A stretch of DNA of 64,000 bases from a virus: positions 26,169 to 90,168 of IMG/VR virus record IMGVR_UViG_3300021600_000005, one strand, 5' to 3'. Positions 1-29,986 of this stretch are shown in pieces. A program made the translations under genes and the position numbers. Each line of letters begins with the position of its first letter. Position 1 is the first letter of the stretch. The notes below the pieces were generated by a model. The model had not been told where the DNA came from and made no database searches. It saw only the letters and a program-made list of their open reading frames with translations.

Positions 1-241
1 ACCAGTAATGATAATCCTATGGTGGTTCAAAGTAGGTAGAAAAATAATTAAAACTTTTTCAGGGATGAAAAATGTTTTAAATCAAAAACCTAATATTGAG
101 ACCCCCCCAATTCATAATATAACAACGGAGCAAAAAATTGAACCTCCGTTAAAAAATCAACAACCACCTATGCCGGATATTGCTCAACTTATGGGGATGG
201 TGGACCAGTTTGGAAAAATGTTTGGAAACAATAGGAAATAA
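1..241 (+). CDS. Hypothetical protein, probably 5'-truncated by the window edge
   Basis: Frame is open back to the window start; Pro/Gln-rich C-terminus. Confidence 0.6.
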   Translation, partial: PVMIILWWFKVGRKIIKTFSGMKNVLNQKPNIETPPIHNITTEQKIEPPLKNQQPPMPDIAQLMGMVDQFGKMFGNNRK

Positions 242-242
242 T

Positions 243-470
243 ATGGAAATAATGATTTTAAAAAAAGAATATGAATGGGTTTTAAAAATATTAAACTCTT
301 CTATTAATTTATATCAAATAAAAACATCTGAAAATTTATTTAATGCGTTTATTAATAAATGGGATGATGAAATATCTGATGAAAAAAAAATAACTTTATT
401 TTATGAATTTAAAAAAAATAAGTTATCAAAATGTGATGAAATTGGTTTTTCAACCTTTAAAATTTATTAA
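243..470 (+). CDS. Hypothetical protein (MEIMILKKEY...)
   Basis: ATG at 243 directly follows the upstream stop; the longer 180 start overlaps the previous gene. Confidence 0.6.
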   Translation: MEIMILKKEYEWVLKILNSSINLYQIKTSENLFNAFINKWDDEISDEKKITLFYEFKKNKLSKCDEIGFSTFKIY

Positions 471-542
471 GGATAATTATTCATATGTAGGTATATAGTT
501 GAGGTAGTTATATAACCCTTCAAATTTAATGTTTCCTCCACC
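445..542 (-). repeat. Repeat-spacer-degenerate repeat unit at the 3' end of P1
   Basis: 36-nt GGTGGAGGAAACATTAAATTTGAAGGGTTATATAAC (507-542, minus), about 26 nt unique, then a copy whose 3' 22 nt (TAAATTTTAAAGGTTGAAAAAC) stay in register. Confidence 0.6.
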
Positions 543-775
543 CAGTCTTTTGTAATCGACTGAAGTTCTTTATATTCAAGTGAAAACATGGATTCTAAAA
601 ATGACCAAATTGTATCATAATCAAAATAAAATTGTTTATTTATCCTATCTATCTGAGCAAGTCTTTTTTTATTTTTAACATAATAAGAACCAATAATTTC
701 AACATCAGAAAACATATCGTTTAACCAATCCTTAACCAATCTTGCCCTTTGCGTTTTTGTTATGTTAATTTTCAT
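467..775 (-). CDS. Repeat-spacer-associated small protein, paralog P1 (MKINITKTQ family)
   Basis: One of five near-identical ~100-aa paralogs; TATTTATA motif just upstream. Confidence 0.9.
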   Translation of the reverse strand: MKINITKTQRARLVKDWLNDMFSDVEIIGSYYVKNKKRLAQIDRINKQFYFDYDTIWSFLESMFSLEYKELQSITKDWVEETLNLKGYITTSTIYLHMNNYP

Positions 776-777
776 TT

Positions 778-888
778 AATATAAATACTTTAAAATTTAA
801 CGACTCTTTCACCGATTATGTCCTCCATATAGTAGTATTGGGATTATAAGTAGTTTTATGGCCCTTCAAATTTAATGTTTCTTCCACC
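778..888 (-). repeat. Repeat-spacer-repeat unit at the 3' end of P2
   Basis: GGTGGAAGAAACATTAAATTTGAAGGGCCATAAAAC (853-888), 39-nt unique segment, GGTGAAAGAGTCGTTAAATTTTAAAGTATTTATATT (778-813). Confidence 0.75.
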
Positions 889-1121
889 CAGTCTTCTGTA
901 ATAGCTTGCAGTTCCCTATATTCAAGTGAAAACACGGATTCTAAAAATAACCAAATTGTATTATAATCAAACCAAAACTCCTTATTTTTTTTATCATGGA
1001 AACCAATGTTTTTTTTATTTTTAACATAATAAGACCCAAGTATTTCAGCATCAGAAAACATATCGTTTAACCAATCCTTAACCAATCTTGCCCTTTGTGT
1101 TTTTGTTATGTTAATTTTCAT
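816..1121 (-). CDS. Repeat-spacer-associated small protein, paralog P2
   Basis: Paralog of P1 and P3-P5. Confidence 0.9.
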   Translation of the reverse strand: MKINITKTQRARLVKDWLNDMFSDAEILGSYYVKNKKNIGFHDKKNKEFWFDYNTIWLFLESVFSLEYRELQAITEDWVEETLNLKGHKTTYNPNTTIWRT

Positions 1122-1128
1122 TTTCTTA

Positions 1129-1950
1129 TTAAGAAAGTGATGAATATATTTTTTTAAATTCTTTCAATCTATGGTCTAAACCTATTGTTCCACCATTTAC
1201 TCGTTTTGTTACAGCGATTACTGTAGAATCGTCAGAGCCTTTATCACAAATAGACCAAAGTTTATTAGAGTCAAAGAAAAACGCAGCTGACGCTAACGGA
1301 TATTTAGTTGCAACTAATTCTGGATTTTTCATAATATCGTCATCAACAGTTTTATCAAATTTTGAATAATTATCTTTACCGGTTAATTGAATATATCCTC
1401 TGCCGCAAAATAAATAACCTTCTTTAGTTAATTCATTACCATTACCCATTCTATTTCCATAAACAAGGGAGGCGATTTTTTCTGGATTACGAGCGTATGA
1501 TTCACTTAAATTACCCGGAAAATATTTAGGGAATATTTTTTTAAGTCCATCAGAGCTGTAATTTAAATTTTCTTTAACCGCTTTAAATCCTCCAGATTCA
1601 TGACTACATTGAGCCAAAAAATGAGACAATCTTAAATTGTTTGTAATATTAAATTTAATAGCCGTTTCAGGTATTTGAGAAATTACCAAATCTGGAATTA
1701 GGCCTTTTAATTTATCTAGTTTTAACCCTTCTACTTTTGGAGTAGATACAGTTTCATTTATGGGTGATAAATTAATTCCCATTTTTTCCAAAGTTGATTG
1801 ACCGGCAATCCCGTCTGAAATTAAACCGTTTTTAGTTTGCCATTCTTTTAATGTTTTTTCTGTGTTAGGGCCAAAGACACCATCAAGTGTTAACCCTAAT
1901 TTTGATTGAAGTTGTTTAACAATTTCACCATTTGAACCTAATTTTACCAT
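1129..1950 (-). CDS. Endolysin: N-terminal peptidoglycan-binding domain plus glycoside hydrolase family 19
   Basis: DGVFGPNT/DGIAG PG-binding motifs; GH19 motifs HFLAQCSHESGGF, GRGYIQLTGKDNY, TKRVNGG. Confidence 0.9.
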   Translation of the reverse strand: MVKLGSNGEIVKQLQSKLGLTLDGVFGPNTEKTLKEWQTKNGLISDGIAGQSTLEKMGINLSPINETVSTPKVEGLKLDKLKGLIPDLVISQIPETAIKFNITNNLRLSHFLAQCSHESGGFKAVKENLNYSSDGLKKIFPKYFPGNLSESYARNPEKIASLVYGNRMGNGNELTKEGYLFCGRGYIQLTGKDNYSKFDKTVDDDIMKNPELVATKYPLASAAFFFDSNKLWSICDKGSDDSTVIAVTKRVNGGTIGLDHRLKEFKKIYSSLS

Positions 1951-2095
1951 AAATAATTTTTATTAATAAATATCCAAATAATTTTTTTATGGTATTTAAT
2001 AAATTTTATAAAATTTTATGATTGTTTAATGTAATTTAAAATATTTATATGTAAATACTATAATTAAAAATTAATAAGAACTAAACACTAAAAAT

Positions 2096-2350
2096 ATGGA
2101 CGCACAAACTATAGTTATTATTACCGCTTTAATAGGAATTCTTAAAGGAAAGGATGTGTGGGAGTATTTTAAATTTAGAATTGAAAATAAAAGTAAAGGT
2201 AACGATAAAATTATTGACATTTATGAAAAAAGAATTTTATCTCTTGAATCAGAAATAAAAGAATTAAGGGATAAACAAGATGAATTACTTAAAAGAATGG
2301 AAAGTAAAATATTAAAAAGCCGAGGAACTAAAAAAGAGGTTTTAGGGTAA
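2096..2350 (+). CDS. Small protein with N-terminal hydrophobic helix and coiled coil (possible lysis accessory)
   Basis: TIVIITALIGIL followed by a heptad-rich region; divergent from the endolysin. Confidence 0.55.
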   Translation: MDAQTIVIITALIGILKGKDVWEYFKFRIENKSKGNDKIIDIYEKRILSLESEIKELRDKQDELLKRMESKILKSRGTKKEVLG

Positions 2351-2382
2351 TTTATTTGTCTTTGTCAAATGAATCATTGTCT

Positions 2383-2931
2383 TTATAATCCGGAATCAGC
2401 AATAGGGATGCCATTGCTAACGACATCGAAAACCGAAACAACCTGCACCCGACCAAAGTAAGTTTTAGGCTGCCACACCAATACATCAGACAAAAGAAAC
2501 TTCTCTTGTGCCTTTTTGTATGTTCCAGATGGATTTGCAGGGATAAACCAATGCTGAAAAATAATCCTTTTACTTGCTACTCTTGAAAGTTCAGTTAGTA
2601 AATCGTGATTCCATTGAAACTTTCCGTTGTATGGTGGGTCGCAAATAACCGTTTCAAATTCGTTATCCTTTACAAAGTCTTTCATATTTGAAGCATCGCA
2701 AATTATATCAGGTTTATTTTCAGCATCAGCATCTAATCGAACATCTCCAAGCATTGATTTACCACTACAAACGTGCAATGTTCTACCGATGAACAATCCT
2801 TGCAAAACATCTTCAATGCTATCGTTCCAAAGTTTCTTTTTAACTCTGTAAATGTGGCTCGTTCCTGCCAACGGCACACTTCCTTTTGTCTTGTCAATAG
2901 CAGGTTGATTTTTGTAAGTTACATTTCCCAT
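2383..2931 (-). CDS. Putative DNA amino-methyltransferase
   Basis: SAM-binding-like LHVCSGKS and catalytic DPPY; visibly more GC-rich than its flanks. Confidence 0.75.
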   Translation of the reverse strand: MGNVTYKNQPAIDKTKGSVPLAGTSHIYRVKKKLWNDSIEDVLQGLFIGRTLHVCSGKSMLGDVRLDADAENKPDIICDASNMKDFVKDNEFETVICDPPYNGKFQWNHDLLTELSRVASKRIIFQHWFIPANPSGTYKKAQEKFLLSDVLVWQPKTYFGRVQVVSVFDVVSNGIPIADSGL

Positions 2932-2973
2932 ATTTATTATTTATTTAAGTTTTCGTTTCAAAATCCGCAACGG

Positions 2974-3071
2974 CATATAACAGCGGTTTTGTGCTATTTG
3001 CCCCATCAACATTTGTGGTAACTTGAAACTTTGTGCAAGGGGCAAACAGACACAAAGTCAGTACGGTCATA
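2974..3071 (+). mobile_element. attC-like imperfect palindrome next to the methyltransferase
   Basis: ATATAAC-agcggt-TTTGTGCTaTTTGCCCC...GGGGCAAAcAGaCACAAA: long stem with extrahelical bases and an R''-like TAAC. Confidence 0.5.
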
Positions 3072-3099
3072 ATTATAGTTAATATTATTGTCACAACTT

Positions 3100-3351
3100 T
3101 TATTTTTTTATTATTGGATTAATTATTATCACTTCTGATTCGGTTTCAATTATTACTCTTGCCCCACAAGATAGTATTGGTTTAGCATCACACCCCTCAC
3201 CACCATATATTATTTTACTCGGACCTAAAATTTCAACTTCATTACAATAAGTATTTTTTTTACCTTGTTTAACTGTAATCACAGGTAAATCAGTTCCTTT
3301 AGTTTTGTTAGAACGAATATTATGTTGGTTAACATGTATTCTTGTTTTCAT
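3100..3351 (-). CDS. Hypothetical phage protein (IHVNQH...LSCGARV)
   Basis: Clean ORF in the operon; motif pattern recalled from small phage proteins. Confidence 0.7.
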   Translation of the reverse strand: MKTRIHVNQHNIRSNKTKGTDLPVITVKQGKKNTYCNEVEILGPSKIIYGGEGCDAKPILSCGARVIIETESEVIIINPIIKK

Positions 3352-3354
3352 AAC

Positions 3355-4572
3355 TTAATTACTTAAAGGGGCTTTAATTGTTGGGTGTGATTGATAGTTT
3401 ATAAGTTTGAAGTTATCATAAACATATTCATCAAACTTTAAATCAGGATTAGTGACCATAACTAAGGTTGGTAACTTAAATGATTCTCTACTGATTTGTT
3501 CTTTAGCTTGCTCAATATGATTGAGATACAAGTGAGTATCACCTAAGTTTCCAATTAGCTCATCAGGAACCATATTAACTTCTTTAGCAATAATTTCTAA
3601 TAACAATCCATAACTTGCAATGTTAAATGGTAAACCTAAGAATGTATCTACTGAACGTTGATTCCACATTAAAGAGATTGCTCTGGTTGGAATGTTATAA
3701 TCATCAAATAAACTATTCCACCCATTTTCATCCGTTGGGAAAACATCCTTAATCCAAGATGATTTGTCGTAAATGTTTTTACGTTCTTGTGAACTCAACT
3801 CTTTTGTATAAACTTGAAATCCATAATGACAAGGTGGAAGAGTCATTTGGTCTAATTCTCCAACATTCCAGCTTGAAACCATTAATCGTCTTGAGTCTGG
3901 ATTTGTTTTAAGGTCGTTGATTAGATTTGCGATTTGGTCTATTGAATTATTTTGGTGCGTTACTTTAACATCATATTTACTATAATCTCCACCATCACGA
4001 ATTAAGTCCATAACTTTAACTTTGTCAGAACTTTTTACATTTTCTAAATCATAATTTATTACGTTTTTTTTACCCCAACTTCTCCATTGCTTACCATAAA
4101 TTGGACCTAACTCACCCCACTTATTTTCCCATTCTTTATCTGTTTTAATTTTATTGACAAAATCTTCTTTACTATATGGAATCTTAACTTCAGGACTATT
4201 AACATATCTCTTATAAGCATCGCCGTCCCAAATATGACAATCATTATCAACTAAATACTTAATATTAGTATCTCCTTTTAAAAACCATAACAATTCAGTT
4301 ACAATAGTTTTAAATGCCATCTTCTTAGTTGTAAGCAATGGAAATCCTTCACTCATCTTATGACGTATCTGTCTTCCAAAGATACTGATTGTTCCAGTCC
4401 CTGTTCTGTCCGACTTGGTTACTCCATTATCTAAGATGTCTTGGAGTAGGTCTGTGTATTGTTTATCTAATTTATTCATAACTTTTTCTTTTTGTGCGTA
4501 AGATAATACAGATGGCATACCACTATAATGACACCACAACTCACCTAAATTATCTTCATTATCTTCTTTCAT
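3355..4572 (-). CDS. thyA: Thymidylate synthase with N-terminal extension and insertions
   Basis: DRTGTGT, FPLLTTKK, ELLWFL, LPPCH, QRSVD.FLGLPFNIASY, DTHLY; start at 4572 gives an ATGA overlap (alternative start 4479). Confidence 0.95.
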   Translation of the reverse strand: MKEDNEDNLGELWCHYSGMPSVLSYAQKEKVMNKLDKQYTDLLQDILDNGVTKSDRTGTGTISIFGRQIRHKMSEGFPLLTTKKMAFKTIVTELLWFLKGDTNIKYLVDNDCHIWDGDAYKRYVNSPEVKIPYSKEDFVNKIKTDKEWENKWGELGPIYGKQWRSWGKKNVINYDLENVKSSDKVKVMDLIRDGGDYSKYDVKVTHQNNSIDQIANLINDLKTNPDSRRLMVSSWNVGELDQMTLPPCHYGFQVYTKELSSQERKNIYDKSSWIKDVFPTDENGWNSLFDDYNIPTRAISLMWNQRSVDTFLGLPFNIASYGLLLEIIAKEVNMVPDELIGNLGDTHLYLNHIEQAKEQISRESFKLPTLVMVTNPDLKFDEYVYDNFKLINYQSHPTIKAPLSN

Positions 4573-4916
4573 TTTACAAACAATTGAATTCCTAGTATGG
4601 TAAGGGCTAATATTAAACAAATAATTGTTTTTGTATTAAAAGGTTCATTAAAAAGATACCAACTAAAGTAAGTAAATACTATTGCTCCTAATGAAAATCC
4701 TATTAATCTTGATGGCCACATTTGACCTTCATATGCAATTACCATATTCTTTACTGAATACATAAAAAACATTGATGCCGGTATACCCATTAAAACAACC
4801 AACCAGTAATTGTTTTTAAACCAATCATACTTCATTTGTCCCTGTAATTGAAAGAAAGTTACGATTTGAGCAAGAATGCCAAACACAATACCGATTATAA
4901 GTTTTCCTACGTTCAT
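4569..4916 (-). CDS. Four-TM membrane protein (SMR/DMT-like)
   Basis: Four hydrophobic segments and an LFNEP motif. Confidence 0.65.
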   Translation of the reverse strand: MNVGKLIIGIVFGILAQIVTFFQLQGQMKYDWFKNNYWLVVLMGIPASMFFMYSVKNMVIAYEGQMWPSRLIGFSLGAIVFTYFSWYLFNEPFNTKTIICLILALTILGIQLFVK

Positions 4917-4940
4917 TTTATTTTAATAACTTTCTATTAT

Positions 4941-5576
4941 TTAATCCCACCACCACGACATACGTTCATTTAAAATTTTAAACAAAAGACTATGAGCTTT
5001 TTGTTGGTTATAATGACCGATATTCATAGCGATTCTTTGTTTTATTTCAACTGTGTTTTCTTCTTCTCCTATTTTAATATTAAAAATTTGAAGTTTTTTG
5101 TTGGATAAAACTTTTTTATATGAAAGTGGGTACTTTTTAAAATACGAATCAAAGTCTTCGTGTATTATCTTTATGTCTAATGTTTTATTTTCAGTATCTC
5201 CAGGAATATCTAAAAAATTATATTCGGTTTTTTCATAGTCTGAGTATTCAATTGAATAGAAATCTTCTTGTACTCGTTGAATAAGATTCAAACATAAAGT
5301 CATATCTCGATTGTCTCGTTCAACTTCACTATGTCTATTAGACGTAACAATATATTTACGTTGTAGTTCAATCTTACGTTTTAACACTTCAAAAATATAA
5401 TTACTATCCCAATGTCTATCATTAAAAATAACTGAAAACCAATCAATAAGATTTTTTACACCTCTTAAAAATTCTAAAAACCATACCGGTAAATAATTTT
5501 TCCAGGAGTTTCTATCCCAAGCGCTATCTTTCGGCATTGGAAGTTTTTTGATTATTTTGTTATTATAAATGTCCAT
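4941..5576 (-). CDS. Hypothetical phage protein (C-terminal WWD)
   Basis: Clean 211-aa ORF in the operon. Confidence 0.7.
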   Translation of the reverse strand: MDIYNNKIIKKLPMPKDSAWDRNSWKNYLPVWFLEFLRGVKNLIDWFSVIFNDRHWDSNYIFEVLKRKIELQRKYIVTSNRHSEVERDNRDMTLCLNLIQRVQEDFYSIEYSDYEKTEYNFLDIPGDTENKTLDIKIIHEDFDSYFKKYPLSYKKVLSNKKLQIFNIKIGEEENTVEIKQRIAMNIGHYNQQKAHSLLFKILNERMSWWWD

Positions 5577-5632
5577 TTTTTACGTTAAATATTTTATAAA
5601 GATATGTAAAAAATATTAATAATCAAATAAAA

Positions 5633-6994
5633 TCATTTTTTTAAAAACACATTCAAATCTTCAGGAGTCCCCAGTCCCCACATTTTTTCAATATCAAAAG
5701 TTCTAATTTTTTTACAATCTTTAATTGCTTGGTTAAAAACGGGACAAATATAAAATTCATCATTCACTCTGATATTTTTCTTAATCATTTCTTCTGAGTA
5801 TTTTACATAGTCAGAACCTTTTTTCCAAAAATAAATTCCAGCGGTTGCAATATTTGATATTGGGTTTTTTTCTGCAACCTCTGTTACATAACCATTGTCA
5901 TCAATTTTAGCAAATGACCATTTTGGATGAGTGGAACGGAATGTAACAATACCTCCATCAGAATTTGTTTCCATCATTTTGTACATAAATTCATTTGAAT
6001 CCCATTCAATAAATTGGTCAGAATTCGCAATTAAAAGCGGATTTTCATTATTAATATAATCTTTGGTTAATAAAGTTGTGCAAGCGGCTCCTTCAGTTAA
6101 TTTATCTACCTCAACAATTTTACAATTAGGTGAAATTAATTTTAATAACGCGTCTAAGTTATATTTTTCCCTATGTGATTTTTGAACAATATAAATAAAA
6201 TTGGCATTAATATTAAGATTTTCGGTTACTACTTTAATCATTGGTTCTCCGTTAATTTCAATTAATGGTTTTGGAAAAGAATATCCGGCTTTTTCAAATC
6301 TTGAACCGGCTCCCGCCATCGGAATTAAAACGTTTAATTTATTGTCAGACCATTTTGGGATTATCATAATTTTGTTTTTGTTTAATTTATTTTTTATTTT
6401 TTCAATTGTTAAATCTGAAGGATTGTTAACCCTTAAAACATTTGCGTTACTTCTACCGGCAGCTAAAAGCCCTGGAGGGGAATCCTCAACAATTAAAGTT
6501 TCTTCAGGTAAAACTCCCATTGTACTCATGGTTTTCCAATACATTTCAGGATGAGGTTTACTATTTTTAACGTCTTCATTTGAAATAATTAAATCCATGT
6601 ATTCAATAATACCAATTTTTGATAACATAACCAACACAGACCTTCTAATTGAATTTGAAGCGCATGATAATCGATATCCCATTTTTCTTAATTCTTTGAA
6701 CAATTCAATCATTTTAATGTTTGGTTGTAATTCGGAAATTAAGTTAATTGTTAAATTTTGTTTTTGATTCCAAATATCATCATATGTATTTGGATTTAGA
6801 CCTTTATTAACTGTTAGTAATTCTAATTTTTGATAGGTTTTTAAACCGTCATATATTGATAAATGTTCTGTTTCGGATATAACATATTTTTCAGTATTGC
6901 AAACTTCTCTCAAAGATTGGTTTAATGTTTGAAAATGTATTTGTTTAGCGTCAACTAAAACCCCATCTAAATCAAATATTATTAATTTAATCAT
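5633..6994 (-). CDS. HAD-family phosphatase fused to a sugar nucleotidyltransferase
   Basis: FDLDGVL, KPHPE, VEDS (HAD); IPMAGAGSRF...PKPLI, EKNPISN, LGTPEDL (NTP-transferase). Confidence 0.88.
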   Translation of the reverse strand: MIKLIIFDLDGVLVDAKQIHFQTLNQSLREVCNTEKYVISETEHLSIYDGLKTYQKLELLTVNKGLNPNTYDDIWNQKQNLTINLISELQPNIKMIELFKELRKMGYRLSCASNSIRRSVLVMLSKIGIIEYMDLIISNEDVKNSKPHPEMYWKTMSTMGVLPEETLIVEDSPPGLLAAGRSNANVLRVNNPSDLTIEKIKNKLNKNKIMIIPKWSDNKLNVLIPMAGAGSRFEKAGYSFPKPLIEINGEPMIKVVTENLNINANFIYIVQKSHREKYNLDALLKLISPNCKIVEVDKLTEGAACTTLLTKDYINNENPLLIANSDQFIEWDSNEFMYKMMETNSDGGIVTFRSTHPKWSFAKIDDNGYVTEVAEKNPISNIATAGIYFWKKGSDYVKYSEEMIKKNIRVNDEFYICPVFNQAIKDCKKIRTFDIEKMWGLGTPEDLNVFLKK

Positions 6995-7421
6995 TTTTAT
7001 ATCTTTTAATAAAATCTGAGCAAATACCTTCGCATTTGTTCACATTTTCATTGTATAATTCTGGTTTGACAGCAATGCTACCAATAATTGGTTGAGTCCC
7101 AGGATAAGCCCATATGTAATTTTTAGAAGTTAATGTTACAGTATCTTCTTCATGCCAAAAATAATGTATATCATATTTTTTCATTTCCACTAACGCGTCC
7201 AAATTTTTGGCGTGGCACCATAATTTTTTATTCATCAAAAACTTATAATCCACATCATATTTTGCTTCATCATGTCCTAACATAAATTTTCCATTAATAT
7301 ACCAAACATCAATTTCAACATCGTAACCTAACTTAATTGCCGATTCAATATATGTAGGGGTATTTTCAAGTTCATGAAATTCACCATCAATATTTCCTCT
7401 GTGAGATATTAGTATTGTCAT
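6987..7421 (-). CDS. Glycerophosphodiester phosphodiesterase-like protein
   Basis: ISHRGN, EN, DVEIDV, LGHD, GICSD. Confidence 0.75.
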   Translation of the reverse strand: MTILISHRGNIDGEFHELENTPTYIESAIKLGYDVEIDVWYINGKFMLGHDEAKYDVDYKFLMNKKLWCHAKNLDALVEMKKYDIHYFWHEEDTVTLTSKNYIWAYPGTQPIIGSIAVKPELYNENVNKCEGICSDFIKRYKND

Positions 7422-8191
7422 ATTTTTGTTGGTATGTTTACATCAATATTTGGGGTTTTCCAAGGACTATCCCTTACATTTAACCTACGTAATAATCCCC
7501 AAGTAGCATATTCTAAACCATACGCATAAAGTTTAGTTTTTAACCCTAATTCTTCAGTTCTATATTTCCAAATAGCGTGGCAAGAGGTTATATTTGTTTC
7601 ATCCATTCCGTGATTTTTAATAAATTTAAAATAATCGTTTTCTAAATTAAAATAACTATCAAGTTTATCGTAAATTAATCCAATATTTTTCATGTTTTCA
7701 TAACCAGAAATAAACCATCCATCATTAAATCCCCACCCTTCGTCTAAAAGATGCCAATGACTAACGTAAAAATTTTCAGGGGATAACAAACTAAAATCAA
7801 TCTTCTCATAAAAAACAGTATCAAATCTTGAAATTAATACCATATCATATGAATCATCAATCAATTCCATTGTTTTTTTAAGTGAATAAAATCTTGAATA
7901 ATTGTTATTTAAATAATTTTTGGTATTCCAAGGACCATCCGGTACAAAATTGTAATCTTTGTACGGATGGTCAAACAATCTTTGTTTTTCAAGAATAAAT
8001 TTTTTTGGGTTAACTGTGCTAATTAATCTTTCGCTTTCTTGTGTAGAATCGTCCCATCCATGAAAAAATATGTCCGTATTTTCTGTAATTACATTTTTTT
8101 TTAAATAATCAAAAGGGATTTTAAATCCTTGTATTTCATCTCGACTATTTTTGCCTGTAAATTTACCGTAGAAACATAAAGCAATTTTCAT
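7418..8191 (-). CDS. Putative glycosyltransferase-like protein
   Basis: MKIALCFYG, FFHGW, YDMVLISRFD, ND motif; lies in the sugar cluster. Confidence 0.55.
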   Translation of the reverse strand: MKIALCFYGKFTGKNSRDEIQGFKIPFDYLKKNVITENTDIFFHGWDDSTQESERLISTVNPKKFILEKQRLFDHPYKDYNFVPDGPWNTKNYLNNNYSRFYSLKKTMELIDDSYDMVLISRFDTVFYEKIDFSLLSPENFYVSHWHLLDEGWGFNDGWFISGYENMKNIGLIYDKLDSYFNLENDYFKFIKNHGMDETNITSCHAIWKYRTEELGLKTKLYAYGLEYATWGLLRRLNVRDSPWKTPNIDVNIPTKI

Positions 8192-8212
8192 ATATAAACA
8201 ATTTAATATAAA

Positions 8213-9076
8213 TTATATTAATTCTTTTATTTCCTCAATAGTGAATTGTTCAACTTCAGATGAAAATGGACCGTCTTCTAATATTTTTTCATGAAAATTT
8301 TCTCCAGGTTGGAGACCAATAACATTTATTTTTTGTTTTGCGTTTTTTTGACCATATTTTTGATACATTGTTTCAAGTAAATTTTCAATACTCATTGATT
8401 TCATACCAGGGACATATGGTTTTGATGTGTTGCAATTATCTAAACAACTAAAAATTAAATCAATTGCTTGGTCAACTGTCCAAAAAAATCTTGTTGCTTT
8501 AGGTTCGGTAACTATTACAGGTTTATCATTTTGTATTAATTCTTTCCATTTACACAATACAGACCCTGTTGAATAAAGAACATTTCCATATCTAACTATT
8601 CTGTAATCACATTTAGGGTTTAATTCTTGATATTGTGAACAAAGTCTTTCCATTAATAATTTACTAGCCCCATAAACACCAACAACTTGAGCCGCCTTAT
8701 CCGTTGAAATACTAATAAAGAATTCTAAGTTTTCGTTTAGAGAACAATCTAATAGATTCATAGTACCTATTGTATTAGATTTAACGCATTCTCTAACTTG
8801 TTTTTCAGCTAAACCAACATGTTTTGATGCCGCCAAATGAAAAACGGCTTTAACATCTTTCATTGCTTGTTTTGAGTCAAATGGGTCAGAAATGTCCCCT
8901 GTTAAGATTTCAACATCAGGAAATTCTGATTTCAAATCAATTAATTTGCCTTCATTTCTGGCAATTGTCCGTACATTAGCTCCTAGTTTAAGTAATTCTT
9001 TTATTAAAGGTTTCCCTAAAAATCCTGAACCACCGGTTACTAAAACTAATTTGTTTTTTAAATCGTATTTTTCCAT
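8213..9076 (-). CDS. NDP-sugar 4,6-dehydratase (CapD/PseB-like SDR)
   Basis: VTGGSGFLG, HLAASKHV, ISTDKA, YGASK, VRYGNV, TRFF, GENFHE. Confidence 0.9.
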   Translation of the reverse strand: MEKYDLKNKLVLVTGGSGFLGKPLIKELLKLGANVRTIARNEGKLIDLKSEFPDVEILTGDISDPFDSKQAMKDVKAVFHLAASKHVGLAEKQVRECVKSNTIGTMNLLDCSLNENLEFFISISTDKAAQVVGVYGASKLLMERLCSQYQELNPKCDYRIVRYGNVLYSTGSVLCKWKELIQNDKPVIVTEPKATRFFWTVDQAIDLIFSCLDNCNTSKPYVPGMKSMSIENLLETMYQKYGQKNAKQKINVIGLQPGENFHEKILEDGPFSSEVEQFTIEEIKELI

Positions 9077-9089
9077 TTAAATTAAATTT

Positions 9090-9908
9090 TTATTTACCAA
9101 ATATTTCAATTTCCCAACCACCAAGAACATTATAAAACCAAGCATCGTTCATTAATGGTTCGAATTTTTTTATTCTATCATTTTCATGTTTTAATTTTTC
9201 CATTTGTTCGATATCTTCTTGTCTAATCGCTCTAACATTTATCATTCCGGGCCATTGATTACTTAAACATTCTATTTTTTTAATTGCCCATCTATCAACA
9301 GAACCAATAACTTTATATCCATCACCGTTTGCAAAAGACATACTTCCTATTGTTTCCCATCCCCAAGGTGTCCAATTTCTTTTAATATTTTTTAAAAACC
9401 ATTTTCGATTCCAGATAGAAAAAGCCGCTGCGTTTTGATATAAATTAACATTACCTGGTGCAGAGTCAATAAGAGATATAAATTCAATACCGTTTTTTTC
9501 AACGTATGGTTTTACATGATTTTTATCTCGAGCGTGTTGTAAAGAAGGTTGTAAATCAATTCTACCTACATTTTCGTTTAACAATTCCAAACAAGTTTCA
9601 AAAACTTCAATGTCAACAGGTCTTGCTATCATAAAATCATCTAATCCAAAAACAAAATATTCGTCTTTAATACTTGAAAAAAAATCAATTAAATAATTTG
9701 ACCAACCATCAGCTCCCCCAACCTGTTCTTTTCCCATTGAGATAAATTCAAAATTACTTTCTAATTTAAAATCTGGAGGGGTAAAACCTAAAATTTTAAC
9801 ATTTATATCTTTACTCCAATATTTGTTAAAAAAATATTGGAAATATTTTACAATGAATATATTACTATCACATGTTGAAATGTATACATTCAATTTATTG
9901 GTTGTCAT
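9090..9908 (-). CDS. Putative GT-A glycosyltransferase
   Basis: ISTCD, LDDF (DxD-like), SIWNR, TPWGWE. Confidence 0.6.
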   Translation of the reverse strand: MTTNKLNVYISTCDSNIFIVKYFQYFFNKYWSKDINVKILGFTPPDFKLESNFEFISMGKEQVGGADGWSNYLIDFFSSIKDEYFVFGLDDFMIARPVDIEVFETCLELLNENVGRIDLQPSLQHARDKNHVKPYVEKNGIEFISLIDSAPGNVNLYQNAAAFSIWNRKWFLKNIKRNWTPWGWETIGSMSFANGDGYKVIGSVDRWAIKKIECLSNQWPGMINVRAIRQEDIEQMEKLKHENDRIKKFEPLMNDAWFYNVLGGWEIEIFGK

Positions 9909-9918
9909 AACTTTTATA

Positions 9919-10344
9919 TTAATTTATTTTATTCATGTGTCTAATATAGTTTATTAATAAACTATCTATGTTTGCTTTACCAACTGGATTAGCTGATTGT
10001 ATATTGTATAATGGTAATGATTTATTATTATCTAAACAATAGTCAACTAACCATTTAGCACAATCAAACCCTGTTTTTTCTTTTTGTTTTAATAATCTTG
10101 ACTTTTTCTTAGTCATGCCTTTGGACCTTGCATCTAAAGACACGTCCATCCCTAAATCGTGGTCAAAACATATTGCTTCAGGTAATTCGTTATTTTTAAT
10201 CCAATTAATAAATTCGTTATAAGACTTAACCCATTCTATATGTTTTAAATCATCATTTAATATTGGACTAAATGTAACAACCCAGTGATTTTCAAACGGG
10301 TTTCTTACATCATCTAACCAAAGCAATGTCCCCTTATTTTTCAT
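9919..10344 (-). CDS. Cyclic-phosphate-processing receiver-domain protein
   Basis: LWLDDVR, FDHDLG, TGFDCAKWL, SANPVG. Confidence 0.75.
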   Translation of the reverse strand: MKNKGTLLWLDDVRNPFENHWVVTFSPILNDDLKHIEWVKSYNEFINWIKNNELPEAICFDHDLGMDVSLDARSKGMTKKKSRLLKQKEKTGFDCAKWLVDYCLDNNKSLPLYNIQSANPVGKANIDSLLINYIRHMNKIN

Positions 10345-11012
10345 AAGTTTTTTATTTCTTGTTTAACTTCATTCCAATAATTAAATCTTTTAGTTTCCCA
10401 TTGAACATTATCACTTCCATTCCAATTATAACATTCATTGATAATTTCGTAAACTGCGATTGTCGCCGCATGTTTACCACCATCTATTGTTAGGAGACAT
10501 TCGTTTTCGTATTTTTCAACTAGTTCTATTGCTTTTTCTTTTGGTGTCATAGTTTTATTTTCTTCAATATGTTCATATGCTCCATCTCTTTCTAATTCTT
10601 CAGGTGTTGCAAATGGTTTTAGACATTGTTCTTTCCAATATTGTTCTTCTAACTCCTCTGTCCAATCTTCAGTGTGTTCATATGCTCCATCTGGACCAAT
10701 TTGAAAGTCATCACTAATATATGGTTCATCTTCTAAACCATCATTTAACGTTACATCCCAATCCTTTAATTCAGATTCTTCAGGTGTAATTATCTTAGCG
10801 TATTTAGGAAAGTGCTCAGGTCCGTTGTTATCATAGCCAGCGACCATTTCAAATTCTACTTCTAAACCTTCATTAGAGTCGTATAGTTTTAACCCATCTA
10901 TATGGCCATTGTCTACTAATGGATACTGGTTGATTAGTTTAGCGTCTGGTCCTTCTTTAACCACTTGCTTTACTACCCACCCACGATTTGTTTTATTTAA
11001 TATTCCTTTCAT
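10341..11012 (-). CDS. Hypothetical mosaic acidic protein
   Basis: ORF with an internal DGAYEH duplication. Confidence 0.65.
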   Translation of the reverse strand: MKGILNKTNRGWVVKQVVKEGPDAKLINQYPLVDNGHIDGLKLYDSNEGLEVEFEMVAGYDNNGPEHFPKYAKIITPEESELKDWDVTLNDGLEDEPYISDDFQIGPDGAYEHTEDWTEELEEQYWKEQCLKPFATPEELERDGAYEHIEENKTMTPKEKAIELVEKYENECLLTIDGGKHAATIAVYEIINECYNWNGSDNVQWETKRFNYWNEVKQEIKNL

Positions 11013-11692
11013 ATTTCAATTATATTTCCGTTACTACTTAATTTACCAAACTTACCATCAGTTACTACACTTCCATTACTATAGATTGTATCACCTATTG
11101 ATAGTTTCATTGTTCCTGCATTAATGATGTCTTCGCTATTGTGGATATGACCAAACAAACATAGTTTAGGTTTTAAATTTAACATACGCTTTTTAAGTGA
11201 AGTATCACCACAAAATTCTAATTTACCAGTTACATCATAAGATAAGTCTAGTATTCCTTTTGGTGGTCCATGTACAACTACAATATTAGTATCATCAGGA
11301 ATATGTTTCCAAACCTCAGAAGTCTTAGCTCTATTCTTATTGAATGCCCATCCATTACCAAATGTTGGTGTGATTGGAGAACCCCATATTTTAATCCCTT
11401 CTATTTCAATCCAATCATTCTCCAAGTATATAATACCTGCTCTTTCAAAGTCATCTTTTTTAATAAAGTTTCTTTCAATACAAACGTCGTGATTACCTGC
11501 TACAAATACTTTATATTTGATTGGTAATAAGCTATACCAAGATATAAAACTTTGCATTTCATCTTCACTTAGGTAAGGGTCTCTTGGATTAGTAGCGTCT
11601 CCACTATGAATCACAATGTCAATATTTTCTGGAATATCTAATAACTCATGATATGTGTGAGTGTCCGATATATGCCATACTGTTTGTTTCAT
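11009..11692 (-). CDS. Calcineurin-like metallophosphoesterase
   Basis: ISDTH, HSGD, AGNHD, HGPP, FGHIH. Confidence 0.9.
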   Translation of the reverse strand: MKQTVWHISDTHTYHELLDIPENIDIVIHSGDATNPRDPYLSEDEMQSFISWYSLLPIKYKVFVAGNHDVCIERNFIKKDDFERAGIIYLENDWIEIEGIKIWGSPITPTFGNGWAFNKNRAKTSEVWKHIPDDTNIVVVHGPPKGILDLSYDVTGKLEFCGDTSLKKRMLNLKPKLCLFGHIHNSEDIINAGTMKLSIGDTIYSNGSVVTDGKFGKLSSNGNIIEI

Positions 11693-11693
11693 G

Positions 11694-12041
11694 TTATTTA
11701 GTTATTAGTTCGTAAGTTGAATTTTGTGTTTGAAATTTAATGTATCCTTCTCTTTGTTCCACTATCTCAGTAATTACCGTTGTAAGCCAAGTATAACTTA
11801 CTGGATGTGGATTTAATATTAATGACCTCCCAATAGACGGTTCATCATGTATTTCTTTACCTGTAGATTCACCAATTTCATTCCATTCAACCCAACCAAT
11901 ATTTGAACCTACATTAATTAAACCATCGTTTAATCTTTTTAAGGTATATTTTGACGGTTCATCTATTGGTACGATTGAATCGGATATTCTTGGTACGATT
12001 GAATCAGCATCATATTTATTTTGTTTTCCTATTTTGTTCAT
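11694..12041 (-). CDS. Hypothetical phage protein
   Basis: Clean ORF ending F.TQNSTY; short DSIVP tandem duplication. Confidence 0.7.
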   Translation of the reverse strand: MNKIGKQNKYDADSIVPRISDSIVPIDEPSKYTLKRLNDGLINVGSNIGWVEWNEIGESTGKEIHDEPSIGRSLILNPHPVSYTWLTTVITEIVEQREGYIKFQTQNSTYELITK

Positions 12042-12054
12042 ATTAGTCTTGTTT

Positions 12055-12156
12055 TTAAAATGACCATACTAAAAAAGGTATACTTAAAAATAACACTATT
12101 CCTAGTATTAATAATAAATGTGCTCCAACATATTCTATTTTTTCTTTTGTTATCAT
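12055..12156 (-). CDS. 33-aa single-TM microprotein
   Basis: MITKEKIEYVGAHLLLILGIVLFLSIPFLVWSF; ATGA coupling to the upstream ORF. Confidence 0.55.
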   Translation of the reverse strand: MITKEKIEYVGAHLLLILGIVLFLSIPFLVWSF

Positions 12157-12257
12157 TTTGTTATTAAATTTAATGAGTTTATTGATAAAAACAAAACACC
12201 AATAGTGGTAAAACCAATAATTAAAATTATTAGTATTTCAATCGGTGTTAAAAACAT
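12153..12257 (-). CDS. 34-aa single-TM microprotein
   Basis: MFLTPIEILIILIIGFTTIGVLFLSINSLNLITK. Confidence 0.55.
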   Translation of the reverse strand: MFLTPIEILIILIIGFTTIGVLFLSINSLNLITK

Positions 12258-12258
12258 T

Positions 12259-12369
12259 TTATTTATTTTCATATTTTCCAATTTTAATTAGTAATCCTAA
12301 AGATATTAACAATACCACAGCTCCAATTATTTTACTTGCGGCTTCATATGTATTATTAGATATTTCCAT
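12259..12369 (-). CDS. 36-aa single-TM microprotein
   Basis: MEISNNTYEAASKIIGAVVLLISLGLLIKIGKYENK; first gene after the promoter. Confidence 0.55.
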   Translation of the reverse strand: MEISNNTYEAASKIIGAVVLLISLGLLIKIGKYENK

Positions 12370-12396
12370 TTTAGTTTAACAATTAATTTATTCTTT

Positions 12397-12428
12397 CAAA
12401 GATACATTAAAATTTAAATATAAACAAA
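12397..12428 (-). promoter_or_regulatory. Bacteroidota housekeeping-type promoter for the leftward operon
   Basis: TTTG-N20-TATCTTTG on the minus strand. Confidence 0.7.
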
Positions 12429-24576: not shown

Positions 24577-25317
24577 ATGACACAAGATACAATCACAAAA
24601 ATTACAAATTATCAAGGAAATAACTCATTTTTAATTAAAATGAAAGAATCCTTTCAGAAATACGGAAACTTAACTCCAAATCAACTAACCGCAGTTGAAA
24701 ATATCTTAGGTAAACCGACTCCAAAATCATTTGAGGAATTACCTGAAGAAGTGAAGGAAATCGCCTTATATAACGGTAATAATAAATTCTTAATTGATAT
24801 TAAAACCAAGTTAATTGAGAAACGTTCTTTAACTGAAAAACAAATTGAAGTGGCAATTAAACAAAATCGCCAGGAAAAAGACAAAAACAGAAAAGTGAAG
24901 ATGAAAGTTCCAACCATTGGGGAAACTATTAAAATTGGTCGTAAAGTTGGAACCGGTCTTAAAGAAAAATATTCTTTAAAATTTAACCCAATTTTAATTG
25001 ATATTACTAAAGTTCTTGCCTTAACTCCAAAATCAGTTTTATTCTCTGGTAAAATGACCATAAAACGTGGTGATGTTTGTATGATTTGTGCAAAAACATT
25101 AACTGACGAATTTTCAATGTTAACTCGTATGGGTAAAACATGTGCTAAACATCTTAAAGTAGAATATATTACCGATTCATCACAAGCAGAAAGATTCCGT
25201 AACGAATATTTAAAAAAAGTGAATGAAATTGGAGAAATGGAATTTTGGGTACCGATTTCACAAATTGTAAAATGGGATGGTGACTCTAAAGTTATTTTAG
25301 ATATTGTTCACGTTTAA
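24577..25317 (+). CDS. Hypothetical protein with duplicated N-terminal module and DUF6011-like zinc finger
   Basis: Y.GNN.FLI...LT..Q occurs twice; CMICAKTLTD..S....GKTCAKH. Confidence 0.7.
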   Translation: MTQDTITKITNYQGNNSFLIKMKESFQKYGNLTPNQLTAVENILGKPTPKSFEELPEEVKEIALYNGNNKFLIDIKTKLIEKRSLTEKQIEVAIKQNRQEKDKNRKVKMKVPTIGETIKIGRKVGTGLKEKYSLKFNPILIDITKVLALTPKSVLFSGKMTIKRGDVCMICAKTLTDEFSMLTRMGKTCAKHLKVEYITDSSQAERFRNEYLKKVNEIGEMEFWVPISQIVKWDGDSKVILDIVHV

Positions 25318-25329
25318 TTTTTATAAAAT

Positions 25330-25400
25330 AGTCAGGTGGCGGAATGGTAGACGCAGGTATCTCAAGATATGATTACAAGGTTCGATTCCTGTTCTGATTA
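25330..25400 (+). tRNA. tRNA-like element (Leu-type D arm, aberrant anticodon arm containing CAA)
   Basis: Acceptor AGTCAGG/TCTGATT, D arm GCG-GAATGGTAGA-CGC, GGTTCGATTCC T loop; the anticodon stem closes only a 4-nt loop; no long variable arm. Confidence 0.6.
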
Positions 25401-26521: not shown

Positions 26522-27091
26522 ATGGATGATATAATAAGTAATATACTAATTGGGGTTAATCCAAAGGTAAAGTCCGGTAGTTTTGGGATTGGTGAGAATA
26601 CCGCAACTTATAATTGTAGTAGTAATGTTGATGTTTCATCACCAGTTGGCGGTAAAATTGAAAAAATAAATGGAACTGAGGTCATTATTGTATCTAATGC
26701 GGGAAATAAGTATACAATTAATGGAGTTTCTACTTCTTTGAGCGTAGGAGCCTCAGTATCTTCAGGGACTTCAATTGGTAAAACAAGTGGTAGACAGATA
26801 ACCTTAAAATCCAGACAAGATTTATCAAGTTTAGAGTCTACAGATGAAAAAAAAGAAAATAATGTTAATAATACTGAAAACTCAGGCGAGTTAGGGTTTA
26901 ATAGTGGTGAAACTCAAAAAATTTGGGATAAAACCGTAGGTAAGATGATTGGCATTTCAAACATACCATATGATGTTGCTTCAAAACGTATAAAAAAGGC
27001 AATTAAAAAGGTAACCTTAAAAAAAGAATCTATTGATATTAAAGATAATGTTTTATCTGAAGAATTAAAAAGAATCAAAAGTTTATTCTAA
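26522..27091 (+). CDS. Degenerate M23/hybrid-motif-like protein
   Basis: VSSPVGGKI...VGASVSSGTSIG without the zinc ligands. Confidence 0.5.
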   Translation: MDDIISNILIGVNPKVKSGSFGIGENTATYNCSSNVDVSSPVGGKIEKINGTEVIIVSNAGNKYTINGVSTSLSVGASVSSGTSIGKTSGRQITLKSRQDLSSLESTDEKKENNVNNTENSGELGFNSGETQKIWDKTVGKMIGISNIPYDVASKRIKKAIKKVTLKKESIDIKDNVLSEELKRIKSLF

Positions 27092-27145
27092 AAAAAATCC
27101 CCATTGTTAAATGAGGAATCAAAAAATCTATGTTTTTTTAAACTC

Positions 27146-27346
27146 TTAGTGAGTTGTGCTTGTAGCAACAACTGACATTGTTTCAACTGGTAGAACAACT
27201 GTAGAATCTACAACTTTGTTACAAGTGTCTTCACAACATGTAACTGTGGTTGAATCTGTTGTTGTTGGTTTAGTTGAATCACCACTTACACAAGATGCAA
27301 GTGAAAGTGCGGTTACTAGGACTGATGTTAAAATTACTTTTTTCAT
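27146..27346 (-). CDS. Small lipoprotein
   Basis: MKK, hydrophobic core and LASC lipobox; Thr/Asp-rich tail. Confidence 0.75.
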   Translation of the reverse strand: MKKVILTSVLVTALSLASCVSGDSTKPTTTDSTTVTCCEDTCNKVVDSTVVLPVETMSVVATSTTH

Positions 27347-27433
27347 TTTTTATATTGTTTTTATTTACTCAATAAATATACTATTTCACCCAATAAGTCA
27401 ACATTTATTAAAAAAATATTTTTTTTAATAAAA

Positions 27434-27733
27434 TTTGGTTTTTAATATAAAATGATTACATTTGTAGAACTTTGATAAAGTTTAATGTATTTATAAAACA
27501 CGTAAAATTTATTAAAAAAAGATTTGACAGTTTAAAAAAAATGTCTTATTTTTGTAAAAGAATTGATAGTTTTTAATGTATTTGTAAGACATAAAAAAAT
27601 ATTAAAAAAAGATTTGGTAAATCAAAAAACTTTACCTAACTTTGTAAAAGAATTGATAGTTTTTAATGTGTTTGTAAAACATAAAAAAAATTAAAAAAAG
27701 ATTTGGTAAATTAAAAAAAAATACCTAACTTTG
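27434..27733 (+). promoter_or_regulatory. Four tandem ~89-90-bp repeats, each a complete Bacteroidota promoter
   Basis: -33 TTTG at 27434, 27523, 27613, 27702; -7 TAnnTTTG at 27457, 27547, 27637, 27726. Confidence 0.85.
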
Positions 27734-27760
27734 TAAAAGATATCAGAAACGTCTGATTGT

Positions 27761-27771
27761 GTTCTTTGAAA
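27761..27771 (+). promoter_or_regulatory. boxA-like antitermination site
   Basis: GTTCTTTGAAA after a short hairpin (ATCAGA..TCTGAT), as in rRNA leaders. Confidence 0.55.
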
Positions 27772-27774
27772 TAT

Positions 27775-28640
27775 TATTATCCGTTTGACGGATTAAAATG
27801 AAACCTTCGGGTTAATTTTGAACTCCGTCAATAAATGATAATCGGCCGTGTATGGTCGTTAAATAAACCACGAAAGTGGGATAAAGTGAATTTACTTGTG
27901 TTAGTAAGTTTGCGGTTTCTTTAGAAACTCGAGTACACAAGTGGGATATCATCCGACCTTTATTACTGAGGGCGACGCTTTAAGGAAAGTGGTTGGATGG
28001 TTTGGGAATGTGGATTCTCAAACTGAGTTCGGAAGAACAATAAAAGTAACCCATAGGAATCAAGTAAAAAATGTGGCACCAACCATATAATTGCGGGTTC
28101 CAATGTTAAAGAGGACTTAAAACCGAAAGGTAAGATAAAGAACAAGTGGTGTTGTTATTATCCTTACATATCATCCGCCAAGATGTATGTTTGAAGTAAT
28201 CTTAAAATATTGAGATAGGGATATTTCACTGAGTAGAAAAGCATTTTGATTCTCAAAAGGAGTTGAAGCTTAAGATGGACCTCTACTTGGACGCATCCAC
28301 GACACATAAAACTTATACCAAATTTTAAGTAAAATTAAACTAAATATAAGCAAAAGTGTTCATCAGGTTTTGATGAAAGTCGCCTACATAGTCATGGGTT
28401 GTCCATGGCATACTAAGACCGCAAGTCGAAGTATATTTTTACCAAAAACCTCTAAGGAGTCGAATCCTGAGTTAACTCGCAAGGTTAAGGAGAGTGGAGT
28501 AGTAAAAGAGTAGTTGAAACCTTTAGGAGTGATTAGTCTAACTAATCGGCGATGAGACTTACCATTCAAAAGATGGTGGAAACAAAGGGAACTAATAATC
28601 CTTTAAAAGATTCTCACATATAGGTGTATTCTCAGCCTAA
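27775..28640 (+). ncRNA. Giant structured ncRNA, GOLLD-like
   Basis: ~860 nt, GC-elevated, no credible ORF; many GNRA/UUCG hairpins (AACC-TTCG-GGTT, CCAC-GAAA-GTGG, ACC-GAAA-GGT, GAC-CGCAA-GTC) and repeated GAGTA loop-E-like motifs; family call from recall. Confidence 0.72.
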
Positions 28641-29067
28641 ATTAAATATTGTAACAAAAATTGTTTATTAAATTAAACACTGGAGATGATACCTCATTAC
28701 AATACAAGTGGTTCCCAAGTTGTTTCCTTCATAACAACAGCAATGAACTAAAACTTGCAAAAATAAAATGAAAGGTTTTTTATTGGTGATTTAGTTAATT
28801 TATCACATTTTGGTACCACATCCAAAAAGATTAAAAAATAAACACTTTTTATGACTTCGGATGTCACAGGTTAGTTCAAACCAAAAAAACTCATGTCACT
28901 TTTGTTTAGAAAGTTTTGTTTTATAAACAGTCTTCTATTTTAGTGGTTAACTAAAAATGAAACAATTGAATAAACGGTTTTGTTAGAATTACCAAAAAAA
29001 AGTAACGTCACAAACTACTTTCGTATAATATCCAATTTACGTTCTAACAACTGGGTAAAGGCTAAAT

Positions 29068-29106
29068 AGGGAGGTTTGATTAGCCGTCAGACCTCCCTTT
29101 CTTTTT
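29068..29106 (+). terminator. Intrinsic terminator ending the ncRNA transcription unit
   Basis: AGGGAGGTTTGA-ttagccg-TCAGACCTCCCT followed by a T tract. Confidence 0.8.
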
Positions 29107-29165
29107 GAAAAATCTTTAATATTATTATGGTACCCTTGAGGTATAAAAACTAAAAATTTAATAGC

Positions 29166-29501
29166 ATGGAAATGTATTATTTTTCTTTAGGTATTCTTTC
29201 GATTATTAGTCTAATTTTTTGTAGTCTAATTGTTTGGGGTTTAGTTAAGGTGATTAAAACAAAAAATGATTTAGAAAATTTCAAAGAGTCTTATAAATGG
29301 GATTTAGAATGTAACCATAGAAGATTTGATGACAACAAAAGAGAGGTTAATCTTCATATGGAAGCTTTCAATAGAAATATTGAAGAGACCGTTAACAGTG
29401 TACACCGCTCAATTGATGAAAATTTTAATGAATCTAGAAGTTACACCGACAAACGAATTGACAAATTTTTAAACAAGTCAATTGACTCTGAAAAGAATTA
29501 A
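29166..29501 (+). CDS. TM plus coiled-coil hypothetical protein
   Basis: N-terminal TM; C-terminal SYTDKRIDK. Confidence 0.65.
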   Translation: MEMYYFSLGILSIISLIFCSLIVWGLVKVIKTKNDLENFKESYKWDLECNHRRFDDNKREVNLHMEAFNRNIEETVNSVHRSIDENFNESRSYTDKRIDKFLNKSIDSEKN

Positions 29502-29534: not shown

Positions 29535-29927
29535 TGGTGGAGGCGGAGGGCTCCGACTCCCTCGTCCAAGTAACCCCGATTAACCAGGACTACACGCTTA
29601 GTATAAAGTTTTCTAACTTTCCAAAAATACTTAATTCTCTTATTTTATAGTGGTTCGATTTATCAAGAACTTAACTTCCACTTGTCTCTTTTTGGGTAGA
29701 GTCCACACCATTGCAAGGACTTCTGTTCCTAGGTTATATGTCCGCCGACCCGAAACTGTTACTTAATCTAATTAAGCTACAGCAACTTCCTCAGTACGGA
29801 TTAATCCAACTGATGAAAGTTTGTTGATGATGTTATCACCTGAAAAGTAAACCAGTTTTTACAAGGTTAGTTTAGCCTCGACGTGCCCCAATTAACAGAA
29901 AAAACCTGTCAAATCCAAAGCGCCCCC
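29535..29927 (-). ncRNA. ssrA: tmRNA
   Basis: 5' GGGGGCG/CGCCTCC-ACCA 3' acceptor stem with G3.U70, GGATTTGAC, pk1 and tag ORF GDNIINKLSSVGLIRTEEVAVA*. Confidence 0.93.
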
Positions 29928-29955: not shown

Positions 29956-29986
29956 CAAATATAATTATAATTTGACAATTATCAAA
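29956..29986 (-). promoter_or_regulatory. Bacteroidota-type promoter of tmRNA
   Basis: TTTG-N19-TATATTTG on the minus strand. Confidence 0.75.

Follow-up and report, generated by a model that had tools for sequence, protein, structure and literature searches.

Four tandem host-type promoters and a boxA-like leader precede the GOLLD RNA of a probable Bacteroidota phage

In the 64-kb stretch of viral DNA analyzed here (the window), four head-to-tail repeat units, each carrying a complete promoter of the Bacteroidota type, stand before a small hairpin, a boxA-like word and GOLLD, which is among the largest non-coding RNAs of bacteria and phages. It is likely that the array consists of tandem copies of one promoter module that serves RNA polymerase with the primary sigma factor of the host, and that all four copies read into one non-coding unit with a boxA leader. 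Tandem promoters followed by boxA are the textbook design of rRNA (rrn) operons; the trick is known, the cargo, GOLLD, is new. GOLLD is probably made in bulk by the rRNA-style transcription machinery of the host. The initial annotation had proposed that a multiplied host promoter and an rRNA-type boxA leader serve a highly expressed RNA. This core reading is supported by the strand-specific recurrence of the arrangement at other loci, by the identity of the boxA-like word with a word in host rrn operons, by covariation in the hairpin and by the presence of GOLLD in four lake metatranscriptomes.

The promoter array and its counterparts at related loci

The four units of 89-90 bp occupy positions 27409-27741 (Table 1). 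Tandem Repeats Finder returned a 90-bp period at 27481-27740 with 2.9 copies, 84% matches and a score of 357, the more diverged first unit lying to the left of this span. Every unit contains an A-tract before a -33 TTTG, a spacer of 19-20 nt (19, 20, 20 and 20 nt in units 1-4) and a -7 TAnnTTTG, with steps of 90, 90 and 89 bp between the ends of successive -7 boxes. Repeat finding and a pattern scan together confirmed the four ~89-90-bp repeats with A-tract, -33 and -7 elements that the initial annotation had described. The combination of TTTG at -33 and TAnnTTTG at -7 is the published consensus of the Bacteroidota primary sigma factor (PMC7366714, PMC2483708), and all four units match both boxes exactly and at the usual distance.

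When the window was scanned for TTTG-N18-21-TAnnTTTG, 13 matches were obtained in comparison to 4.96 ± 2.04 in shuffled sequence, and none of 100 shuffles reached 13; four matches within 300 bp are therefore far beyond chance. Five of the nine matches outside the array lie directly upstream of a correctly oriented gene, among them tmRNA and the ORFs that start at 24577, 55682 and 62634, which indicates that the phage uses the Bacteroidota word as a promoter. Matches to a sigma-70-type promoter were no more frequent in a scan than in shuffles. Judged from its motifs, the lake phage most likely infects a member of the Bacteroidota. The source virus record comprises 90 kb and is estimated by CheckV to be only ~30% complete, which points to a very large phage.

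Table 1 Features of the array, the GOLLD unit and its surroundings (window positions)
Feature	Position	Strand	Description
ORF of 66 aa	27146-27346	-	lipoprotein-type signal (LASC lipobox); read away from the array
Unit 1 (most diverged)	27409-27508	+	A-tract; TTTG 27434-27437; TAcaTTTG 27457-27464; motif match 27434-27464; predicted start ~27470
Sole exact TATTTAT in the array	27489-27495	+	position homologous to the unit 4 boxA segment
Unit 2	27509-27598	+	A-tract; TTTG 27523-27526; TAttTTTG 27547-27554; motif match 27523-27554; predicted start ~27560
Unit 3	27599-27687	+	A-tract; TTTG 27613-27616; TAacTTTG 27637-27644; motif match 27613-27644; predicted start ~27650
Unit 4 (proximal promoter)	27688-27741	+	A-tract; TTTG 27702-27705; TAacTTTG 27726-27733; motif match 27702-27733; predicted start ~27739-27741
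boxB-like 5' hairpin	27742-27757	+	6-bp stem, loop AACG, -4.8 kcal/mol
boxA-like word GTTCTTTGAAA, then TATT	27761-27771	+	identical to the Bacteroidia 16S leader word
GOLLD RNA, variable 5' domain	27775-28228	+	ORF-free, raised G+C, many hairpins
GOLLD RNA, conserved 3' domain	28229-28638	+	Rfam RF02032, 306.8 bits (gathering 150), model positions 1-416, full model
Second abundant RNA, between GOLLD and terminator	28717-29073	+ (inferred from terminator)	RNA contig cover
First + strand intrinsic terminator after the array	29068-29107	+	13-bp stem and T-run
tmRNA	29535-29927	-	Rfam, 98.6 bits; converges on the GOLLD unit
tmRNA promoter	29956-29986	-	exact Bacteroidota type, ~29 nt upstream; no boxA

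For comparison, 84 GOLLD loci were fetched from viral contigs by a conserved GOLLD word, and the order A-tract, -33 box, -7 box, hairpin and boxA-like word was plainly visible in related ones. Across 32 distinct loci, the 700 nt before boxA contained 54 exact promoter motifs on the GOLLD strand versus 2 on the opposite strand. The GOLLD bodies contained none in 28.9 kb, and shuffles gave 0.5 ± 0.7. Two to four promoters, differing in spacing and sequence, were present in 28 of the 32 distinct loci when TTG was accepted at -33 and the upstream scan was extended to 1,300 nt. At 22 of the 32 loci, 26-28 nt separate the end of the nearest -7 box from the boxA-like word; the distance from unit 4 in the window is 27 nt. 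Some loci carry a tRNA-Met between the promoter and the boxA-like word. Copy-number variation, which the initial annotation had named as a check, was looked for, and no near-identical relatives were found; the only two relatives found share 73% identity and have three irregularly spaced promoters each.

The published sequence of an uncultured 635-kb phage (LR745206.1; L115, 1812-3338) was found to contain an unannotated GOLLD at 287 bits. Its arrangement resembles the present one, with a promoter, a boxA-like word, a tRNA, two promoters, a further tRNA, boxA and GOLLD in succession. The window differs in holding the most regular array seen here, with four 89-90 bp units and no intervening tRNA.

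One could argue that only unit 4 matters and that units 1-3, left over from a recent tandem duplication, are in decay and serve no function themselves. Units 1-3 possess neither the hairpin nor an intact boxA, so that they may contribute little, and at the boxA place they keep only the degenerate words TGTATTTATAA, TGTATTTGTAA and TGTGTTTGTAA, which align with TGTGTTCTTTGAA of unit 4. Divergence is greatest in unit 1, and neither of the two nearest relatives has a neat array. However, when the four units were aligned with four units from two other loci (L026 and L006), the columns of the A-tract, of TTTG and of TA..TTTG were invariant in all eight at a mean column identity of 62%. Invariant promoter columns in units that otherwise diverge point to selection on each promoter. 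The stacks at 28 of the 32 loci, with their differing spacings and sequences, also speak against relics, as do the likewise stacked promoters of host rRNA operons. Overall, we consider it unlikely that units 1-3 are mere remnants.

The hairpin, the boxA-like word and host rRNA operons

Both the hairpin and the boxA word that the initial annotation had placed after the array were found there (Table 1). Among 23 distinct leaders of related loci the pairing of the hairpin is kept while the sequence of its stem varies, with 82.5% of cells paired. Four of the six base pairs were changed on both sides, and none of 500 shuffles reached the covariation score. The word GTTCTTTGAAA occurs as a single exact copy in the 64-kb window, which is not significant alone, and its weight rests on the comparison with other loci only. 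Allowing one mismatch at most, it occurred upstream of the 3' domain, at a constant distance, in ~50 of the 84 GOLLD loci.

A search of 185,579 genomes with the leader pattern retrieved three MAG contigs only. One of them, from a Bacteroidetes MAG, contains GOLLD itself at a score over the cut-off; the other two gave no GOLLD match, and no host rRNA promoter was among the matches. Host 16S loci (L089-L109) were taken from the class of this Bacteroidetes MAG. At 14 of 19 distinct Bacteroidia rRNA loci, GTTCTTTGAA[A/G/T] (GATCTTTGAAA in one) was found 85-144 nt before the 16S 27F site. The word is often trailed by ATATTG; upstream of it stand one to three promoters of this same Bacteroidota type and, as a rule, a hairpin. 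A second copy, GTTCTTTGACA, is located in the 16S-23S spacer of 11 Bacteroidia genomes; GTTCTTTGAAA is one letter off this spacer copy, and both forms occur in phage leaders. Two copies per operon, one in the leader and one in the spacer, are the classical boxA layout of rrn operons. NusB was present in 40 of 41 and Rho in all 41 sampled genomes of the host class. We found no paper on boxA or boxA-based anti-termination in Bacteroidota or their phages.

The phage copy of the rrn design is incomplete: after the -7 box, the phage promoters have 8 A-rich nt (typically TAAAACAA, G+C 0.21) and the host rrn promoters 8 C-rich nt (typically CAGCCCGT, 0.71). In E. coli, the region after the -7 box governs sensitivity to stringent control. 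By analogy, the A-rich start region may let the phage promoters escape this control. In the host rRNA promoters of the same set (L089-L109), the -33 box reads TTTGG, the spacer contains an A-run, and C-rich sequence (e.g., CAGCCC) immediately follows the -7 box; the upstream promoters are often trailed by a boxA-like word of their own.

The boxA leader is a trait of the Bacteroidota-phage branch and not of GOLLD as such. In 24 loci of another GOLLD class, no boxA of Bacteroidia or E. coli type was present within ~2 kb upstream of GOLLD, and the Acinetobacter phage Bestia likewise had neither type over that distance. GOLLD in general therefore does not need boxA, and these loci rule it out as a general GOLLD feature; by the same token, they yielded no host-matched boxA from another phylum. 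The GOLLD of Bestia (MW316733.1, ~26528-26894; L114, 2404-2770) is unannotated, scores 221.8 bits and is located between tRNA-Asn and tRNA-Asp. As Bestia is a cultured phage with GOLLD inside its tRNA array, it could serve as a laboratory GOLLD system.

The confinement of the word to one GOLLD class, with its absence from the 24 other-class loci and from the Acinetobacter phage, would also suit a different role, in which GTTCTTTGAAA and the hairpin serve the structure or processing of the GOLLD precursor, e.g., as a nuclease site or a portion of its fold, and not the loading of Nus factors. Such an element would have to account for the same word in both the leader and the spacer of Bacteroidia rRNA operons. 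No conserved pairing partner of the boxA-like word was found inside GOLLD, and the word was unpaired in the local fold and partly paired in one longer minimum-energy fold. An rRNA-like helix between leader and trailer was unsupported, the duplex reaching -32 kcal/mol versus -34.8 ± 5.3 kcal/mol for shuffled leaders. We rate a purely structural or processing function as improbable, slightly more so than the decay of units 1-3. The one recurrent stretch complementary to boxA, ~300 nt before the GOLLD anchor, was discarded as a partner, since it forms the 3' arm of a local hairpin and covaries with the opposite arm.

The likely GOLLD transcription unit, its RNA and the neighboring genes

Between the boxA-like word and the terminator extend ~1.3 kb without long ORFs. 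The transcription unit likely runs from ~27740 to ~29107, spanning ~1.37 kb and ending at the intrinsic terminator, and the second RNA is probably part of it. For this second RNA, no Rfam family, no ORF and no homologue among 87 other GOLLD loci was found; its fold has a z-score of -2.78, terminator included.

In six lake metatranscriptomes, about half of the words sampled from 27300-29200 are present, and contig cover was examined in four of these metatranscriptomes, one each from four studies. GOLLD was covered in all four, as would be expected of the expressed RNA for which the initial annotation had suggested a look at metatranscriptome coverage. The cover extended from 27816 or 27861 to 28587 or 28618 at word depths of 48-5971; since these are assembled contigs, starts, strand and expression level are not readable from such depths, which give no strict ranking of genes. 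The second RNA was represented by error-free contigs in all four metatranscriptomes at word depths of 43-12397, and was deeper than GOLLD in two of them. The coding stretch 26900-27113 beside the GOLLD unit had zero contig cover, which argues for real RNA and against DNA carry-over, and small flanking ORFs reached depths of 3-44 in the runs that covered them. The contig depths are compatible with high expression of GOLLD. Contig cover was almost nil over the array and over the leader's first 75 nt, which is uninformative on the firing of units 1-3 and on leader cutting. In three studies contigs start at 27861-27862, which at most hints weakly at 5' processing. Junctions with adapter sequence, found at 27816, 28587, 28618, 28721 and 29073, were not counted as true ends.

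Each of the four runs yielded RNA contigs over the tmRNA gene. The 66-aa ORF on the other side of the array has low-depth RNA contig cover and a TATTTAT on its own strand (27372-27378 on the + strand) that starts 32 nt before its ATG. Farther upstream, 25330-25400 (+) gave a weak Rfam tRNA match (31 bits, threshold 29) that was not called by ARAGORN and is followed by a G+C-rich, ORF-poor stretch.

TATTTAT is the most enriched 7-mer before start codons, being found at 43 of 120 genes versus 5.7 expected, mostly 11-30 nt before the ATG and often as aTATTTATa/t (e.g., at window positions 30021, 42820, 49196 and 25907). It probably marks a phage-specific promoter or transcription system. Only few genes, together with RNA genes, carry a host-type promoter instead. 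The initial annotation had pointed to TATTTAT-like motifs between the host promoters, which are indeed present (TATTTATA at 27489, TATTTGTA and TGTTTGTA), and had suggested that the downstream RNA is possibly made both early and late. The strong enrichment of the word and its one exact copy in the array lend themselves to that idea, with phage-type promoters interspersed among the host promoters. However, only one of the three motifs is exact, where 0.2-0.6 exact copies are expected by chance from the genome-wide word frequency and the base composition of the array itself, and in the alignment all three fall on the boxA segment of unit 4, of which they seem to be degraded versions. The early-and-late proposal was therefore not borne out, and we regard it as quite improbable. 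The further suggestion of the initial annotation, that the phage may titrate host RNA polymerase, gained no support either.

Replication-origin iterons or binding sites of a phage regulator would also be regularly spaced direct repeats in very AT-rich intergenic DNA (here 14-20% G+C), but this reading is highly improbable, given that the conserved columns are exactly the -33 box, the -7 box and the A-tract of a known promoter type, that the motifs show a strand bias of 54 to 2 across loci and keep a fixed distance to hairpin and boxA, that cumulative GC skew has no turn at the array, and that relatives carry one to four copies at irregular spacings.

Related systems and a model for GOLLD transcription

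In E. coli, rrn operons are transcribed from the promoters P1 and P2 and carry a boxB-boxA-boxC leader, on which an anti-termination complex of Nus factors, SuhB and S4 assembles. As in bacterial rrn operons, the phage locus has stacked promoters on the same strand with A-tract upstream elements, and a small hairpin followed by boxA near the 5' end of a long, untranslated and highly folded RNA. It differs from them in its cargo, the phage GOLLD, in the A-rich region after the -7 box and in that no leader-trailer helix was found. The rrn operons of B. subtilis likewise carry a 5' hairpin directly before boxA (AUGAUCUUUGAAA), which binds NusB (PMC13753749).

Phage T7 provides a second precedent, in which a functional boxA comes after the host promoters A0-A3, arranged in tandem (PMC3709561, citing Savalia et al. 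2010). Both phages line up strong promoters for the host polymerase before a host boxA, an arrangement suited to reading on without termination. T7 is an E. coli phage and its unit encodes early proteins, whereas the unit described here is purely non-coding, comprising GOLLD and the second RNA; it is headed by Bacteroidota-type promoters in a genuine tandem repeat of 90 bp. A boxA is also found before suhB and other genes (PMC5725501) and before CRISPR operons (cited in PMC13753749). Like these, the phage boxA precedes a transcript without ribosome protection, where its presumed role is to block Rho. The suhB and CRISPR examples are cellular gamma-proteobacterial genes with the form GYTCTTTAANA, whereas the present word is phage-borne and of the Bacteroidia form.

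The structure of GOLLD cages has been solved by cryo-EM (bioRxiv 10.1101/2024.12.08.627333, PMC12990946). In line with described GOLLD RNAs, the present one is full-length (307 bits), is encoded by a phage and lies near tRNA and tmRNA genes. The searchable GOLLD papers deal with its structure and with its setting in phages and near tRNAs, and not with a promoter or leader. Among the papers searched, none connected GOLLD with boxA, and those that name GOLLD together with antitermination were not relevant.

On the preferred reading of the array as a duplicated host promoter module, host polymerase would load early in infection, using as many as four promoters that are close to consensus and have A-tracts as upstream elements. 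The spacing of 89-90 bp would correspond to about one polymerase footprint, and several promoters could be occupied simultaneously. The nascent RNA would then expose the hairpin, followed by the rRNA boxA of the host clade, and boxA would recruit NusB-S10 and other Nus factors, resulting in a termination-resistant polymerase as on rRNA operons. The polymerase modified in this way would keep Rho off the ~1.3 kb of untranslated RNA and may aid co-transcriptional folding, and the leader would be removed afterwards. In this sequence of events we infer where transcription starts, that units 1-3 are active, that Nus factors bind, that termination is suppressed and that the leader is removed. More tentatively, the Nus complex might also chaperone GOLLD folding or cage assembly, while the A-rich start would evade growth-rate and stringent control of the host, giving rRNA-like amounts of GOLLD and the second RNA in the dying cell; we regard this extension as possible but doubtful.

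An rRNA-operon-like leader implies that GOLLD is wanted in bulk and that it is made by the host polymerase and not by a phage polymerase. To survive Rho across ~1.3 kb of untranslated RNA, GOLLD probably depends on Nus factors. The finding would extend boxA-based anti-termination to the Bacteroidota and their phages, and the combination of promoter, hairpin and boxA offers a simple search key for other phage RNAs that are made in bulk.
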